This document shows, piece after piece, positions 5,404-13,922 of a stretch of 64,000 nucleotides of DNA; the first letter of the stretch is position 1; every line of letters begins with the position of its first letter. Below the pieces are notes generated by a model. The model was not told the DNA's origin and searched no databases. It saw nothing but the letters and a program-made list of their open reading frames with translations. The stretch lies in IMG/VR virus record IMGVR_UViG_3300008255_000002. One strand, 5' to 3'. The DNA comes from a virus. The position numbers were made by a program, and so were the translations under genes.

Positions 5404-6347
5404 AAATATTTATCCTTTGAATTATATAACGGCATTGAGTTGATTAGCATATCAACACTTTCTTCAAGTGTGATGGTCGCCTCAAACCCTTTTTCGTTAA
5501 TTTTTCGGTGCGAAATAATATAATCTCGCTGATCTAAATCTTTACCAATCTCTGCTTTACACGAAATAAAATCTAGTTTTGTGTGTAAGAAATTAATAAT
5601 ATCTTGTTTGCTATAGTTGTTTTTATCAGATCCAATATTATAAATTTTATTTTCATCATCTATTAATTTATCAAAATTCTCTAAACCAAATACTAAACTG
5701 CGTCCGATATCATAAACATCAATAAATGAACGTCTTGCATGTGATTCAAAAACAGTAATATATTTCTCATAATATGCCTTCCACACAAAATCATTTACCA
5801 TTAAACTAAGACGCATTGCAGGAGCAATCCCCATAGCTGTAGAAAAACGGTAAACCGCTCCGTTTGGAGTATTAAGGGTATGTTGTTCAGCTTCTAATTT
5901 ATGTCTTCCATAGGTTGATTGTGGGTTCACAGGGCTTTTTTCCGTACAAATCTCATCAAGTCTACCATAACAACTACCCGTTGACATTAATATCATAGGA
6001 GTTTCTGATTTTTTATATCTAGCTACATTAGATGTTCCAATAGCAGTATATAATTTACTAAGCTCTTTATGTCTCTCGCTTAACGGTGCGCCAACAATTG
6101 CCGCCCCATGTAAAATTGCATCACAACCATCTAACATTTTTTCAACATCATTAACATCAGACACATCTCCAACCATAAATTCAAAACCAGGATAACGAGC
6201 TAATGATAATAGACCATCGCAATGTTGGCTCTTCCAAAAGTTATCAACAACTCTAACTTTATAATTTTTTTCAAGAAGTTGTTTTGTTACTGTTGTTCCA
6301 ATAAAACCGCCACCAGTTACCAATACCTTATTTATTTCTTTACTCAT
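5400..6347 (-). CDS. NAD-dependent nucleotide-sugar epimerase/dehydratase
   Basis: VLVTGGGFIG, VDN, STGSCYG, YGRHK (YxxxK), YNIGS. Confidence 0.88.
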   Translation of the reverse strand: MSKEINKVLVTGGGFIGTTVTKQLLEKNYKVRVVDNFWKSQHCDGLLSLARYPGFEFMVGDVSDVNDVEKMLDGCDAILHGAAIVGAPLSERHKELSKLYTAIGTSNVARYKKSETPMILMSTGSCYGRLDEICTEKSPVNPQSTYGRHKLEAEQHTLNTPNGAVYRFSTAMGIAPAMRLSLMVNDFVWKAYYEKYITVFESHARRSFIDVYDIGRSLVFGLENFDKLIDDENKIYNIGSDKNNYSKQDIINFLHTKLDFISCKAEIGKDLDQRDYIISHRKINEKGFEATITLEESVDMLINSMPLYNSKDKYL

Positions 6348-6362
6348 TATATTATTTGTCCT

Positions 6363-6554
6363 TTATCTTAATGTAGAAATTATACCTTCTGATATATTAA
6401 TGTCTCTTGAGATAACATCGTGAACGTACCATCTTTCTCTTTCATAGTTATATTCTAGTATTGTACCGAGCCAAAAAAACCAATCATCATCTTTTTGATA
6501 TTTTGCCTTAACTAGAAAAATTTTATATAAAGGTATCATGGAGTTATAATCCAA
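6363..6554 (-). CDS. Small hypothetical protein
   Basis: 63-aa ORF filling the operon. Confidence 0.4.
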   Translation of the reverse strand: MDYNSMIPLYKIFLVKAKYQKDDDWFFWLGTILEYNYERERWYVHDVISRDINISEGIISTLR

Positions 6555-6955
6555 AATGGTTTATTTAGTTTCGCGCAATGTTCAACAGTATTTAGTGTTC
6601 CGCTATTTCTATATCCTAATCCATCATAAAAAGCAACAACACAATCAGCAAATTCGGCGATCTGTTTATTTCTTTCAAGATAGGCTAATTTATCTGATGG
6701 ATATCGTTTTTTAGGGAGGAATTCAGTTAGTTGTAAATTATAAAATTTTGCGACTGTTGCCGCTGTTTTATCTACAATGCCGCCCCCACCACTAACTATA
6801 TGTGGACATTTATATTCTAAGCAATATTTGATAAAAACATCAACTTCATTTGGAGATGGAAATCTTCTTGATCCAACAATACCTATTTTATTTAAATCTA
6901 AACTATATTTTGTTATAATTTCCGCCACATCATATACGATTTGTCTATTCATCAA
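6536..6955 (-). CDS. SLOG superfamily protein (YspA/DUF2493-like)
   Basis: IGIVGSR, IVSGGG.IVD, RN.QIAE..D.VVAFYDG..SGT..TV. Confidence 0.78.
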   Translation of the reverse strand: MMNRQIVYDVAEIITKYSLDLNKIGIVGSRRFPSPNEVDVFIKYCLEYKCPHIVSGGGGIVDKTAATVAKFYNLQLTEFLPKKRYPSDKLAYLERNKQIAEFADCVVAFYDGLGYRNSGTLNTVEHCAKLNKPFWIITP

Positions 6956-8177: not shown

Positions 8178-9194
8178 TCATTCATAAAATTCATCTCTTA
8201 ATTGAATAATGTTCCTATCTTGTAGATAACTTCTATCCCGTTCCTTTAGAAACCCATAAAATTTATTTTCTAGTGGCGTCTGGAATGATCCGGTTCTTAT
8301 CATATGTGGTTGTCCCTTTTGTAATCGTTCTAACGCGCCACGCATACGTTTCCATGTGTTATAATATGGGGTTTTTAGTTTGAATTGGAATCCTTCGTAA
8401 TCTTCAACAACAAATCCTTCATGGGGGAAATTTGGATTTTCTGAATTATCATTTTGAACATCATTGAGAAATTTTTCAAAATAATCCCAAGACGCAAAAC
8501 TATATGGTTGTTGTTTACATTCAAATTTTAAATGCGATGATATTGTTTTTAATTCTTTATATTCTACTTTTTCAAATTTTTCTGTTCTGCAAATTGCATC
8601 AAGTAATACTAATTTTGGTTCATCATGTTTAATAATATGTGGATCATTTTTAGGATCAATTACCTCAAAGACCAAACTTAAATTTCTATCTTTAAGTATA
8701 TGTTTAATTTGTGATGTGTGAGTCTTATATAATTGATCTTCAAACCACTCAACATAATCACTTTCATTAGTAGCTTTTGTACAAACAAAAAGATCGTTCT
8801 TTTCCCTATTATATCCAACAATCCCCAGATACCCATTATACTTTTCGTATACAGATACAGGGAATTTAATATTTTGCTTTAGGGAAGATAATTGTGTTTC
8901 GGGACGCTCACCATAATTGAAAAATTTCTCATATGACCGCGCAACAATTTCACCAGTCACCACATTAACGAATAATCCGCGAGCACGAATTGTATTTTCA
9001 TCCCAATTCTTTTTTGTGAATGCTTCGCGCGTAAAGTTGAATGATGATATATTTCCCCCTAATTGACGCTCTTTTATATATTTACTACTGTGTAGTTGTT
9101 CGATTAGAGGAATATTAGAATTAATGATTTGTTTCTTTTCTGGCAATGGTCTATATGTAGTGTTTGGTATCTCGATACAATTAAACTTGAGCAT
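8178..9194 (-). CDS. RNA ligase (T4 Rnl1-like nucleotidyltransferase)
   Basis: RARGLF, ARSYEKFFN, EKYNG (motif I Lys), SLVFE, EGFV, FKLKTPYY. Confidence 0.9.
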   Translation of the reverse strand: MLKFNCIEIPNTTYRPLPEKKQIINSNIPLIEQLHSSKYIKERQLGGNISSFNFTREAFTKKNWDENTIRARGLFVNVVTGEIVARSYEKFFNYGERPETQLSSLKQNIKFPVSVYEKYNGYLGIVGYNREKNDLFVCTKATNESDYVEWFEDQLYKTHTSQIKHILKDRNLSLVFEVIDPKNDPHIIKHDEPKLVLLDAICRTEKFEKVEYKELKTISSHLKFECKQQPYSFASWDYFEKFLNDVQNDNSENPNFPHEGFVVEDYEGFQFKLKTPYYNTWKRMRGALERLQKGQPHMIRTGSFQTPLENKFYGFLKERDRSYLQDRNIIQLRDEFYE

Positions 9195-9444
9195 TTTTAT
9201 CTCTATAAATGAATATTACAGTTGCGTTTTCATCTGTTATTTTTTCTTTATTATTCCCTATTTTAACGCTACCTTGTTTAATAAGGGTTTTAGCTTGTGT
9301 TTTACTTTGAGCAAAATCTATATGTACCATAACGTCATATAGTTTCATCTCTACACCAATAATTTTACCATTTAAAACTTCATTTTCAAATTCTGGGTCG
9401 GATGGATCTACATCATCACTATGAATTGTTGCAACATGATTCAT
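9181..9444 (-). CDS. Stand-alone S4 RNA-binding domain protein
   Basis: LYDVMVHIDFAQSKTQAKTLIKQGSVKIG..KITDEN matches the S4 consensus as in the TyrRS C-terminus. Confidence 0.78.
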   Translation of the reverse strand: MNHVATIHSDDVDPSDPEFENEVLNGKIIGVEMKLYDVMVHIDFAQSKTQAKTLIKQGSVKIGNNKEKITDENATVIFIYRDKNAQV

Positions 9445-10591
9445 TATAAATCTCTAATATCCTTAAATTTCCACCAAATTCTACTTGACCATCAAGATTA
9501 AAGAACCCCGAATTCACCTGTAGTGGTAGATGGTTAGGGTTTCTATGTCCTACTACACTATAGTGGTTTTTCGGCATTGTTTCGTGCCAAATTTTCGCGC
9601 ACTGGTCAACTTCTTCATAGGAACCAACCCCCTTAACTAACTGTTCTGTTGCGATAGCTAATAAATTTTCGGGAAGTGTTGGTAATCCTCCATGAGTCGC
9701 CAAAAAATAATTTTCGTGAAATTTAAAATAGCAAAGTTGCGCAAATCTTCTGGTCCATTCGCGAAGATCGCTTTTATTAAATTTTTTCAGTTTCTCGGTG
9801 GTATTTTTTTTAAATTCACCACTAAAGATTTCTTTTTCTTGGTTGTTCGCGTATAAATATGTCCACTGGTCATGATTGCCTAAAACCATACATACGTTAG
9901 ATTTATTATAAATTGATAGTGCGAATTCAACACATTGTTCTTCTTGTAATCCACGATCTACCCAATCACCCAAAAAGATATAGAAGTAATTTTCATTAAA
10001 TGGATTTTGTGTGAAATATTCATTAAGAGGTTCCCAACAACCATGAATATCTCCAATTAGAACAACCTTTTCATATTTAGATAAATCTCTTGGTTCATAT
10101 TTAAATGTTTCGTAAAACTCAGATGGTTTAATCGTTTTACACCAATTGGGCGGTTTTTGAGTCGCGAAGCGACTATACATATTATCAATTACATTTTCCG
10201 GCACAACCTTATATGATGGTGTACGATTTTTATTGCGACTTTTAGTGACTTCTATCGACACATCAGAAAAATCAATGCAATATGCACGATAACGATATTT
10301 TTCAACAAGAGTTTTATATTTACTGAAATCTTTGGTTTTTGAGTGGGTTGCATCTACAAAAATTAATTCGCCCCGCTTCATCCTTTCCTCTAACACACTA
10401 AATAATGTTTTCCATACAGAATTATCATTTTTTTGAGATATACCAAATTTTCCATCAACTTGCATAATTGGGGGTTGTGTAAGTAATCGGATATCATCAG
10501 CACATATTGTATATTCAGACAGGTTGTTATCTTTAATCCAGGTTGATTTTCCGCAACCCGGACTTCCGCGAAGTATATATATAACTCTCAT
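9419..10591 (-). CDS. Polynucleotide kinase (AAA_33) plus metallophosphoesterase
   Basis: GSPGCGKS Walker A, ADDIR, VDATH; GDIHG, GDWVDRG, GNHD, THGG, GHRN. Confidence 0.92.
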   Translation of the reverse strand: MRVIYILRGSPGCGKSTWIKDNNLSEYTICADDIRLLTQPPIMQVDGKFGISQKNDNSVWKTLFSVLEERMKRGELIFVDATHSKTKDFSKYKTLVEKYRYRAYCIDFSDVSIEVTKSRNKNRTPSYKVVPENVIDNMYSRFATQKPPNWCKTIKPSEFYETFKYEPRDLSKYEKVVLIGDIHGCWEPLNEYFTQNPFNENYFYIFLGDWVDRGLQEEQCVEFALSIYNKSNVCMVLGNHDQWTYLYANNQEKEIFSGEFKKNTTEKLKKFNKSDLREWTRRFAQLCYFKFHENYFLATHGGLPTLPENLLAIATEQLVKGVGSYEEVDQCAKIWHETMPKNHYSVVGHRNPNHLPLQVNSGFFNLDGQVEFGGNLRILEIYNESCCNNS

Positions 10592-11173: not shown

Positions 11174-11594
11174 AATACGGTAAATCGCTATTTGGCATTA
11201 CAAGCAAACGAATTTTTGCACCATCTTTATCGCCAACATATCCGATAAAATCATCTATTAGAATATCAATATCTAGTTGTTTACACAACTCTGCTTTACA
11301 GGCTTCGCTATATTTTTCGTAATCCGCACTATAAACATTATCAGGATCTACTAGTATTGGACATAAATAGTTGCTTCGCAACATTTCTACAATTTTATCT
11401 TTTGGGTGCATATCACTAATTACATATATTGAAACTAATCCGCTATGTTCTAATGCTCTGATAAGTGTGTAAAATTCTTTAGGATATTTAGATAAAACTC
11501 CACCAACATCAATAGCCGTATTACAATTACAAAGAACTAAATCTAATTCAAAAATACAATGATGTTTCACATCTAATATTTCATAAATATCCAT
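11115..11594 (-). CDS. HAD-like (5'-nucleotidase-type) protein
   Basis: AIDVGGVL, YVIS, K..LC..L.IDILIDD. Confidence 0.55.
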   Translation of the reverse strand: MDIYEILDVKHHCIFELDLVLCNCNTAIDVGGVLSKYPKEFYTLIRALEHSGLVSIYVISDMHPKDKIVEMLRSNYLCPILVDPDNVYSADYEKYSEACKAELCKQLDIDILIDDFIGYVGDKDGAKIRLLVMPNSDLPYYAESWKSDDKFDFLRRKNG

Positions 11595-12835
11595 TAACTT
11601 ATTTCCTCTGTATCAACATATTGATCGTCTGCTTTAGCCAAATCTTCCATAACAAGAAAATTAAAATTCTTATGTTTGTATGTTTCAAATTTTGATGTGT
11701 GATTTCTTCTAACACAACATCCCTCTAAATAATGGTTTCCCATAGGATCTGGACCATCACCCAAAACCCTCACTTTTTCTAAAAGTTCTTCTGGATCACC
11801 ATTATATATAAAACGATCAAGTTCAACAGGTGTTTTAACTCCTAATTCATCAGCACGTTTTACAACATCATCCCAAGGTAAATCTATTTGTATTCCTTCT
11901 GGATTAACATACACAACCCTATATAATAGAACCTTAAATTCACCCTCGCGACAACCATAATTATAAATCATTTTAGATCCATATTTGGTTGTAAATTCTT
12001 TATCTTTGAGTTTGGTTGTGTCGTGCGATGGCATTATTGGGACTGGTCCGTCAAAACCCACAATCTCATAATACAAAATTTCGTTTTTATTCAGCTTCCC
12101 ATCAAAATATTCGTTGATTTTTTTTCTTAGATCATTATTAACTACCTTATTATCTTCTGTTAAAATAACATTACGACTACCACTAATAGTTTGATATGTT
12201 TGGTTAGGAAAGATATTATATAAACGATTAACGAGTTGTTTCCATTTTGGTAATTCAATATTGTGTAATACGTGTGCTGTGCGTCCTGAACTTCCGTGAG
12301 ATTTTTGAGTTATGACAAGAAAATCGCCATTTTTAAATTTATGAGGAAAGTATTTGATATTTTCCGTATCTATATGTTTTCTAAAGTAAATTGTTTCTCT
12401 GCGAACTTTTATTTTTTTGGAGTTTTCTGTCATGTTTTGACGTGTTGCTTTAGCGTAATATTTTTCACAAATACGAATATTGTTAACAACATCTCCGCGA
12501 AATCCCACATCAAGACTATCTGTTGTTTCTTTTCCTACTATTTTTTCCAAATATGATATAGGACAAACCAAACCCTCCGATATCGCTCCACGGAATTTTT
12601 GTGCCCTAATTCTTAGATTTTGTTCCAAATATCCGCCAAGTGGTCGCGTTAGTTTATTGGTTTCGGCAAACTCTTTTGAAACACAACCGTCTACAGGAAA
12701 AAATAAAACTTTATCCCCTTCTTTCGCATCCAACCCAACCACACATTGAGATCCAAGAACCTCACATAGTTGAATTCTGTCGGCGTTTGGATGAGCGTAT
12801 ACTTTTTTGATCGTTGTAAGATAGAAATAATACAT
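11594..12835 (-). CDS. RNA ligase, DRB0094/Rnl5-like
   Basis: N-terminal OB domain (HPNADRI, KFRG.ISEGL), TQKSHGSS motif I, SGSRN, YYEIVG, EGCCVR, YKHK. Confidence 0.85.
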   Translation of the reverse strand: MYYFYLTTIKKVYAHPNADRIQLCEVLGSQCVVGLDAKEGDKVLFFPVDGCVSKEFAETNKLTRPLGGYLEQNLRIRAQKFRGAISEGLVCPISYLEKIVGKETTDSLDVGFRGDVVNNIRICEKYYAKATRQNMTENSKKIKVRRETIYFRKHIDTENIKYFPHKFKNGDFLVITQKSHGSSGRTAHVLHNIELPKWKQLVNRLYNIFPNQTYQTISGSRNVILTEDNKVVNNDLRKKINEYFDGKLNKNEILYYEIVGFDGPVPIMPSHDTTKLKDKEFTTKYGSKMIYNYGCREGEFKVLLYRVVYVNPEGIQIDLPWDDVVKRADELGVKTPVELDRFIYNGDPEELLEKVRVLGDGPDPMGNHYLEGCCVRRNHTSKFETYKHKNFNFLVMEDLAKADDQYVDTEEIS

Positions 12836-13221: not shown

Positions 13222-13444
13222 TTTTAAATTCCAATTTACGAAGTATTTCAAGTTCTTTCTTTAAATCTTCCAACCAATGAGATAGATCACATGTCATTCT
13301 ATTACAACTTTCTCTACCAACCAATTTAAGATGTTCATGAATAATACTATCCGCCTCATCTCGTTGTTCTTCTAACCAAAAATAATAAGTCTTTCCTTTA
13401 GAAACTTGTCTGCGCAATTCTTTACAATTTTCACAAGGTTTCAT
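13199..13444 (-). CDS. Hypothetical protein
   Basis: 81-aa ORF, CENC. Confidence 0.5.
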   Translation of the reverse strand: MKPCENCKELRRQVSKGKTYYFWLEEQRDEADSIIHEHLKLVGRESCNRMTCDLSHWLEDLKKELEILRKLEFKNDDSRTI

Positions 13445-13922
13445 TACACTTCCTTATATATGAAACTGTTTCTAATACTGTGTTTACCGCCACACACAAT
13501 TTATTTTCCCTAACAAACCTTATTGCAATTCCCATAGCTTTATTGTGAACTTCACAATTTTGTATCTGTTCATATTCTGATCCGTCAGAATTTAATAATC
13601 TTCCTAAAAACTCTTCGTCAGTTAGTTCATTAGGGAGGAATCCTTGTAAGAATTCATTTTCTTGTTTTATATCTCCGCGAATCTCATGTCTCATTTTACA
13701 CAATTTATATGTTTCGTTATTTGATTTAACAAGCTTTTTAATTACTTTGATAATCCATTCGTCGTTTACCTTTTTGCCGCGACCTTCCTCTAACTGAACC
13801 TGTCCTATAATATATCTTAATATATCTCGTTGATATACTGGTAATAATCCCTTATTCGCCTCACTTAATAAATTAGTCAGTTGTGTTTTTAGATTCATTT
13901 TCAAATTCCAATGGGGTTTCAA
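13431..13922 (-). CDS. GatB/YqeY-like domain protein
   Basis: ILRYIIGQVQ, IIKVIKKLVKS..ET, E.EFLQGFLP.ELTDEE, MG. Confidence 0.62.
   Translation of the reverse strand: MKPHWNLKMNLKTQLTNLLSEANKGLLPVYQRDILRYIIGQVQLEEGRGKKVNDEWIIKVIKKLVKSNNETYKLCKMRHEIRGDIKQENEFLQGFLPNELTDEEFLGRLLNSDGSEYEQIQNCEVHNKAMGIAIRFVRENKLCVAVNTVLETVSYIRKCNETL

Follow-up and report, generated by a model that had tools for sequence, protein, structure and literature searches.

The window analysed here, a 64,000-nucleotide stretch of the IMG/VR virus record IMGVR_UViG_3300008255_000002 (138 kb in all, 138,177 bp, with ~30% G+C and a CheckV completeness estimate of 90%), carries three consecutive minus-strand open reading frames (ORFs) that encode a polynucleotide kinase-phosphoesterase (Pnkp; 9419-10591, 390 residues), a small S4-domain protein (9181-9444, 87 residues) and an RNA ligase (8178-9194, 338 residues). 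In more than 90% of relatives the two enzymes are fused in one protein of ~730 residues, and the placement of an S4 gene in the break between them is so far unique among the several hundred relatives surveyed. The best explanation, to which we assign a probability of roughly 0.45, is that the locus is a phage operon for heal-and-seal repair of tRNA or other RNA in split form; the anatomy itself, a split Pnkp, an S4 gene and a ligase, we regard as highly probable. An earlier interpretation of this DNA drawn from its letters alone (the sequence-only reading) had described a kinase-metallophosphoesterase, an S4 protein and a ligase overlapping in successive +1 frames, and the coordinates agree. 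The Pnkp and S4 ORFs share 26 nt (9419-9444), the S4 and ligase ORFs 14 nt (9181-9194), and the 5' coordinates of the ORFs are 1, 0 and 2 modulo 3, which on the minus strand puts each ORF +1 from the one before it. Neighbours in the gene table of this phage often overlap by 8-44 nt, so the overlaps seen here are ordinary.

Every catalytic motif of the kinase, the phosphoesterase and the ligase is intact, and both enzyme ORFs are full length. The Pnkp ORF (9419..10591, minus strand) is assigned a 5'-OH polynucleotide kinase (residues ~1-164) and a binuclear metallophosphoesterase (~165-385) from its Pfam matches (AAA_33, 3.4e-13; Metallophos, 7.7e-19), its match to positions 1-381 of phrog_8238 (E 4.6e-116), its motifs and the model of a relative. 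The kinase P-loop (GxxGxGKS) is present as GSPGCGKS, with G12, G14, K15 and S16 invariant in the Pnkp alignment, and the phosphoesterase motifs GDIHGC, GDWVDRG, GNHDQ, THGG and GHRN all fall in invariant columns. A fold like that of Clostridium thermocellum Pnkp (CthPnkp) was found for a modelled fused relative rather than for the window protein itself. This relative, L019 (734 residues; 51% identical in its Pnkp part), was modelled with AlphaFold from a 24-row alignment at a predicted local distance difference test score (pLDDT) of 89.9. Its residues 1-164 match the CthPnkp kinase (4gp7; Z 19.5, 154 aligned, root-mean-square deviation 1.9) and residues 161-401 the CthPnkp phosphatase (4j6o; Z 23.9, 227 aligned, deviation 2.7), followed by ApaH (173-394, Z ~21) and PP5 (163-396, Z ~18), where each range gives only the first and last aligned residues of the model. 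The window Pnkp scores 48.3 bits against TIGR04075, the equivalog family for the bacterial Pnkp of the Pnkp-Hen1 system, far below its cut-off of 750, and a search of the phage record for Hen1_L gave no match, as it also did in the control genomes.

The ligase ORF (8178..9194, minus strand, 338 residues) is of the ATP-dependent Rnl1/Trl1-LIG type by its Pfam match to RNA_lig_T4_1 (9.2e-39; 134 bits against a cut-off of 28.3), by its match to positions 420-730 of phrog_8238 and by its motifs. It retains the invariant adenylyltransferase residues K118-x-N120-G121, E259-G260 and K272-x-K274 of the ligase alignment. Its sequence matches in the PDB are to fungal tRNA ligase, and the ligase part of the L019 model resembles the Trl1 ligase domain (model residues 406-732, Z 29) and T4 Rnl1 (410-674, Z 24). 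These matches point to membership of the Rnl1/Trl1-LIG clade, for which sealing of 3'-OH and 5'-PO4 ends in tRNA loops is predicted. Residues 4-11 of the ligase correspond to a hairpin strand discussed below and residues 12 to ~30 to a linker, after which come the adenylyltransferase and C-terminal helical domains.

That kinase, phosphoesterase and ligase are usually one polypeptide, as the sequence-only reading stated, is borne out by the relatives. The single family phrog_8238 (annotated "RNA ligase", 737 positions) spans both window enzymes. We surveyed the 80 best relatives from each of IMG/VR, the JGI metagenomes and the GTDB genomes, the last mostly from Lachnospiraceae and other Bacillota and probably prophages. 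Among these 240 loci the gene is fused in 220, runs off the contig end in 11, has a broken ligase part in 5 and is split elsewhere in 2, with one further locus in which the ligase lies upstream and one with Pnkp only. A tblastn search of GenBank phages found the family in 144 records, including Twort, phiIBB-SEP1, Brochothrix phage A9, SPbeta-like phages and Fusobacterium phage Fnu1, and wherever such a relative was inspected it was a single ORF of 722-739 residues. With a hidden Markov model (HMM) of the S4 family, no S4 gene was detected in or beside the Pnkp-ligase gene at any of the 240 loci. The proposal that S4 genes might lie between the two enzyme genes in other phages thus finds no second example, and S4 linkage is confined to this contig as far as the 240 loci and seven further contexts of S4 relatives extend. 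The sole match of this model in the 240 loci was a complete tyrosyl-tRNA synthetase (TyrRS) gene (L212:8906-10153) on one Lachnospiraceae metagenome-assembled genome (MAG) contig, 0.7 kb downstream of a fused Pnkp-ligase gene; as a single case in 240 it may be due to chance.

Alignment to 16 fused relatives locates the break precisely. The window Pnkp and ligase are collinear with the fused proteins, with LRILEIYNES and then CCNNS and a stop codon on one side of the break and MLK and then FNCIEIPNTTY on the other. Where the fused proteins follow the pattern GG-LRCVQL-xxxG-F-x-IEI-N-VYK, the window has GGNLRILEIYNES, CCNNS with the stop, MLK and FNCIEIPNTTYRP. A segment of ~251 nt (9186..9436, minus strand) that is absent from the 16 fused relatives takes the place of the hairpin turn. 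It includes the stop codon of Pnkp, the start codon of the ligase and almost all of the S4 ORF, and the five-residue Pnkp tail CCNNS is itself encoded by inserted DNA. The length of this segment is 2 modulo 3, hence the two +1 frame steps. From the alignment and the L019 model, strand A of the hairpin (LRILEI, Pnkp residues 376-381; 9449..9466, minus strand) is the last conserved element of Pnkp, aligns with LRCVQI/LRIVTL of fused relatives and corresponds to the modelled strand E374-381. Strand B (FNCIEIPN, at the ligase N-terminus; 9162..9185, minus strand) aligns with FERIEIPN/FNCIELKN and corresponds to strand E384-391. In the model these two strands form a hairpin, a disordered linker follows at 399-408 (pLDDT <50) and the ligase domain begins with the helix at 411. 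Because the alignments to the CthPnkp phosphatase, ApaH and PP5 end at 391-401, strand B belongs to the phosphoesterase fold, so that the suspicion that the ligase begins with a phosphoesterase strand holds on the model of this relative. As modelled, then, a beta-hairpin of the phosphoesterase is broken at its turn, with strand A ending Pnkp and strand B beginning the ligase.

How the break came about is a separate matter. It is plausible from the alignments that the S4 insertion split a fused gene and preserved the Pnkp-then-ligase order of the fused genes; alternatively, the enzyme genes may already have been separate when S4 arrived between them. The former was the claim of the sequence-only reading, and it is no more than plausible, given that a clade of stand-alone Pnkp proteins breaks at the same turn and the window finds no firm position in either enzyme's tree. 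The latter, in which the enzymes derive from a lineage with a stand-alone Pnkp of ~398 residues and S4 is a later intergenic acquisition that split no fusion, strikes us as possible but somewhat doubtful. A word-indexed search returned many stand-alone Pnkp proteins of ~380-400 residues. One clade of them (P0079 with 188 members, and others; ~398 residues) ends in NLRILEI(x)K(x) and a stop, at the same hairpin turn as the window and with nearly the same residues, and the closest Pnkp protein of all (P0003; 50% identity, 382 residues) ends in LRILEITK and a stop. A separate ligase of the stand-alone clade, encoded directly upstream of Pnkp at locus L009, likewise bears a strand-B-like segment (IKEILIRNTMFRE) after a 20-residue leader. 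In a quick Pnkp tree the window groups with the stand-alone clade and two fused loci (Shimodaira-Hasegawa-like approximate likelihood ratio 90, below the mark of 95 and thus not significant), and in the ligase tree a basal polytomy holds the window together with the split clade. Against prior separation, the ligase of the stand-alone clade lies upstream of Pnkp or kilobases away, whereas that of the window lies downstream and collinear; the window strand B, FNCIEIPNTTY, is nearer to FNCIELKNNVY and FERIEIPNTVY of fused proteins than to IKEILIRNTMF of L009; and the window sits on a long branch (0.77 in the quick tree, 0.77-0.81 overall), so that its placement is unsure.

The loci L009 (2418-4697) and L135, bacterial or prophage, place the ligase directly upstream of a stand-alone Pnkp of ~398 residues. 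This permuted order looks as if a tandem duplication had been followed by loss of the outer halves. Because an independent lineage (P0079/L009) breaks at the hairpin turn and keeps strand B on its ligase, the A-B strand pair may be what tethers Pnkp and ligase to each other.

The inserted gene (9181..9444, minus strand) encodes a free-standing S4 or TyrRS-C-terminal-like protein of 87 residues, as assigned by Pfam, NCBIfam, BLASTP, profile search and an AlphaFold model. In Pfam it exceeds the cut-offs by narrow margins, both for SYY_C-terminal PF22421 (1.6e-6; 28.3 bits against 27) and for S4 PF01479 (4e-5; 23.7 against 22.8). Its sole NCBIfam match is tyrS (positions 337-378 of 406), BLASTP aligns residues 9-86 to 338-418 of a 422-residue TyrRS, and a profile built from the protein and five homologues hit TyrRS in 49 of 49 matches to longer proteins, the best of them from a Candidatus Spechtbacterales MAG of the candidate phyla radiation. 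The resemblance to the TyrRS C-terminus proposed at the outset is therefore well founded, and we take the protein to be a free-standing copy of the bacterial TyrRS C-terminal domain, for which homology predicts tRNA binding. The AlphaFold model, a compact fold predicted with confidence from a six-row alignment (pLDDT 85.7), finds only S4 domains among its top matches, with modest Z-scores (uS4 6.4; a TlyA-like protein 5.7; E. coli TyrRS 355-406, 5.4), and Foldseek against the PDB returned weak E-values (best 0.048) that nonetheless belonged to S4 proteins. No TyrRS catalytic domain was found in the phage record by a search whose control was positive in 14 of 14 genomes, so the gene is not a fragment of a phage synthetase gene.

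An exhaustive phmmer search of 1.84 billion representatives yielded five homologues of the S4 protein (85-111 residues, 39-43% identity). They share an N-terminal (H)VAVI start (MAHVAVI, against MNHVATI in the window), and this common N-terminus in independent homologues fixes the start codon at 9444. In the ESM Atlas, SYY_C-terminal/S4 proteins of ~90-120 residues occur in many, largely viral clusters (22 of the 30 nearest), and on further large phage contigs the genes around relatives of the S4 protein are small and unrelated. On the strength of these matches, free TyrRS C-terminal domains appear to be a recurrent and uncharacterised kind of phage protein. Tblastn with the S4 protein and two relatives (P0124 and P0123) against 50,697 phage records gave no match, PHROGs holds no family for the protein, a single-protein scan of IMG/VR with it found nothing and the word-indexed search returned only the protein itself.

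Several lines of earlier work bear on what such a locus might do. Healing of 5'-OH and 2',3'-cyclic-phosphate ends is the task of Pnkp-type kinases and phosphoesterases, and sealing of tRNA loops that of Rnl1-type ligases (PMC3675462, PMC6379707). In bacterial TyrRS, the C-terminal domain recognises the long variable arm of tRNA-Tyr (PMC1934993), and Septu and retron-Eco7 restrict phages through cuts in the variable loop of that same tRNA (PMC13096335, PMC11555353). According to the mechanism that we favour, the three ORFs would be made as three proteins through coupled translation, and Pnkp and ligase would stay associated non-covalently, the strand B with which the ligase begins being paired with the strand A that ends Pnkp. 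The S4 protein would bind tRNA, most plausibly at the elbow between variable arm and anticodon stem of long-arm tRNAs such as tRNA-Tyr, much as its TyrRS counterpart does, and would contribute to the same counter-defence, whether it delivers broken tRNA to the enzymes or shields or retains it. ARAGORN found zero tRNA or tmRNA genes on the whole 138,177-bp record and, because it lacks tRNA genes of its own, the phage must keep those of its host usable.

How far the S4 protein belongs to this mechanism can be weighed from both sides. That it takes part in the repair function is a tentative proposal, based on the position of its gene, to which we give somewhat less than even odds, and the three-part complex with an S4 adaptor put forward by the sequence-only reading draws on that position too. 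The strong version, in which S4 is a trans-acting specificity subunit that recognises the long variable arm of tRNA-Tyr or other long-arm tRNAs and delivers those cut by PtuAB-type nucleases of Septu or the retron to a hairpin-tethered Pnkp-ligase, is improbable in so specific a form. Several observations weigh against the operon as we picture it: the link between S4 and repair is gene position alone; the S4 protein as a whole is acidic (isoelectric point 5.2), with an acidic N-terminal segment of 29 residues, and is basic only in its S4 core (9.06); and neither Pnkp nor ligase was found near S4 relatives within the flanks read in seven contexts (L013, L014, L015/L016, L017, L260, L261), from which it follows that the S4 family has a function independent of these enzymes. 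In addition, the relative L099 has lost strand B and retains both ORFs all the same, which means that the strand pair may not be essential. Co-folding of Pnkp and ligase with S4 as the partner gave a score of 0.00 against a mark of 0.32, which counts neither for nor against a complex.

Alternatively, the S4 protein may be an independent accessory, a tRNA-binding decoy or shield whose gene merely occupies an insertion-tolerant site and which has no physical or mechanistic link to Pnkp or ligase. Such a protein might cover the variable arm of tRNA-Tyr against PtuAB-type nucleases, or it might compete with host TyrRS. We consider full independence unlikely. It draws on the many free-standing, mostly viral S4 proteins described above, on the unrelated company that the relatives keep in other large phage contigs (no neighbour was common to them across the contexts read) and on the lack of any S4 gene in or beside the surveyed Pnkp-ligase loci. 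The tight overlap with both neighbours nevertheless implies co-expression, the gene lies inside an island of tRNA- and RNA-repair genes and, as both functions concern tRNA, complete independence is not the simplest reading.

A less charitable account holds that the insertion inactivated the repair enzyme, that its halves are decaying remnants and that S4 alone, or nothing, is functional. Other members of the family are indeed disrupted, by frameshifts in L012, L035 and L105 and by a LAGLIDADG ORF in L010. In the window, by contrast, both enzyme ORFs are full length with all their catalytic motifs, and their starts and stops are well positioned; elsewhere, too, Pnkp and ligase often occur as stand-alone genes. 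The DNA itself has been recovered repeatedly. A 154-kb ENA contig and Logan contigs match the locus at 100% identity, and a comparison with contigs of three studies (an aquifer run of 2017, a hot-spring run of 2025 and a groundwater run of 2017) showed zero indels and a single substitution, at position 8388 in the hot-spring run, the sequence being otherwise unchanged between the 2017 and 2025 samples. The groundwater match is in pieces that include the S4/ligase junction (9176-9331), and the aquifer run may be the source of the window DNA, so that we count two to three independent samples. Given this agreement across contigs of three studies, an assembly frameshift is unlikely, and inactivation of the enzyme we rate as very improbable.

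The signals around the starts are consistent with three separate products. The element TAGAGAT, a weak Shine-Dalgarno-like sequence akin to those of other genes of this phage, lies 4-5 nt ahead of the start codons of S4 and of the ligase, and its presence before both starts fits coupled translation of the ORFs. Weakest of all is a single kinase-phosphoesterase-S4-ligase polypeptide produced by two +1 frameshifts or disguised by two one-base assembly errors, which we find barely credible: both frame changes are indeed +1 and there is an A5 run (GATAAAAATG) where S4 and ligase meet, but this run is rather short for slippage, the Pnkp/S4 junction has neither a homopolymer nor a slippery site, the S4 start M-N-H-V-A matches the M-A-H-V-A start of the independent homologue P0122, contigs of three studies show no indels and overlaps of such size are usual in this genome.

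Other explanations of the inserted segment were set aside. A programmed +1 frameshift fusion was rejected on finding no shift-prone site at the first junction and an S4 start of its own that is shared with homologues. A group I intron or structured RNA was rejected as well, with no Rfam hit at E<=10 between 7500 and 13500 and a folding z-score of -0.58, and so was a homing-endonuclease insertion, as the inserted ORF is an S4 domain and not a nuclease. The only direct repeats at the borders of the insert, ATTTATA and TAGAGAT, were disregarded for their shortness and AT-richness. Elsewhere in the family such an element does occur. On L010, a 177-kb phage-like contig, a 249-residue LAGLIDADG-type ORF (5530-6279; LIGLLASDGY and LAGYIEGDGC, PF14528 at 9.8e-6) interrupts the fused gene just before the ligase motif-I region, leaving flanking ORFs of 496 and 251 residues, and by its sequence it is probably an intron or a free-standing homing endonuclease.

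Comparison with known systems helps to define what is familiar in this locus and what is not. Among the closest are the fused phrog_8238 proteins of phages and Bacillota (such as Twort ORF008, Brochothrix phage A9 gp147 and the proteins of SPbeta-like phages and Fusobacterium phage Fnu1), which contain the same three catalytic modules in the same order, show identities to the window of 35-51% (Pnkp part) and ~33-47% (ligase part) and are collinear up to the hairpin turn. They form one ORF of 717-768 residues without an S4 module, whereas in the window there are three ORFs, S4 occupying the break. The T4 enzymes Pnkp and Rnl1, which repair tRNA-Lys cut by the anticodon nuclease PrrC, are likewise separate healing and sealing enzymes of a phage, and the ligase fold found on the model of the relative resembles that of Rnl1, as noted. 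The T4 phosphatase, however, is of the haloacid dehalogenase type, unlike the metallophosphoesterase of the window; the T4 enzymes have no known S4 partner, and their genes are not adjacent. With the Pnkp of the C. thermocellum Pnkp-Hen1 system the window shares, on the evidence of the modelled relative, the kinase and lambda-phosphatase-like folds. In the Capnocytophaga Pnkp1-Rnl-Hen1 system Pnkp1 assembles with a ligase that is a polypeptide of its own (PMC3675462, PMC4411300), and the window enzymes resemble this bacterial complex in being encoded by separate ORFs. They differ from both Hen1 systems in that the window ligase is of the Rnl1/Trl1 type and that those systems have no S4 subunit.

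The S4 protein has two sets of counterparts. The last ~80 residues of bacterial TyrRS, its C-terminal S4-like domain, align with window S4 residues 9-86, and PF22421 is above its cut-off, whereas the window protein is free-standing, begins with an acidic segment and has no catalytic domain to accompany it in the phage record. Hsp15 and RqcP/YabO are small stand-alone S4 proteins that bind peptidyl-tRNA on 50S subunits. They are similar to the window protein in size and S4 fold (7aqc_Y, Z 3.8; 1dm9, Z 3.7), but sequence profiles favour TyrRS, and their structural scores are lower than those of uS4, TlyA and TyrRS.

Among the classic forms of counter-defence is the repair of tRNA by phage enzymes that heal and seal, and how such enzymes find their substrates is known chiefly for T4 Rnl1 and the Trl1 domains. 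Heal-and-seal repair is nothing new, whereas the split form with S4 in the break is, and the notion that S4 directs repair to tRNA-Tyr is speculative. A module derived from a tRNA synthetase at the exact seam of a split repair enzyme offers a probe of whether a separate subunit can aim repair. If S4 does so, it would be the first described tRNA-targeting adaptor for phage RNA repair and would constitute a repair-based answer to variable-loop nucleases. The locus also links two threads, the cleavage of the tRNA-Tyr variable loop by Septu and retron-Eco7 and the uncharacterised small TyrRS-C-terminal-like proteins of phages. Moreover, that two lineages break at the same turn, with strand B left on the ligase in each, suggests a natural tether based on strand complementation; such a tether would interest those who study protein fission and fusion as well as engineers.

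The surroundings of the locus include further candidates for RNA metabolism. A second RNA ligase, of the DRB0094/DraRnl type, is encoded on the minus strand at 11594-12835 and comprises an N-terminal PHA02142 oligonucleotide/oligosaccharide-binding domain (5.1e-8) and an RNA_ligase domain, with matches to TIGR02306 (9.2e-13) and phrog_968, so that ligases of two families lie within 4.7 kb of this phage genome. The upstream end of the gene block, at 13431-13898 on the minus strand (L005:547-1014), is formed by a gene for a YqeY-like protein (PF09424 at 1e-6, above the cut-off), a module frequently tied to tRNA or aminoacylation. By their family assignments, these two genes would fit a strategy of repairing rather than replacing tRNAs. 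The runs that carry the sequence are labelled aquifer, groundwater and hot spring, with no RNA run listed among them, whereas most of the nearest Pnkp-ligase relatives belong to gut Bacillota. A minus-strand gene at 6536-6955, some 1.2 kb downstream of the ligase, encodes a DprA/YpsA-like SLOG protein (PF02481 at 1.5e-6, below the cut-off; cpYpsA at 4.5e-4), and a DprA/YpsA-like SLOG gene is present on L010 too, upstream of its Pnkp-ligase gene.

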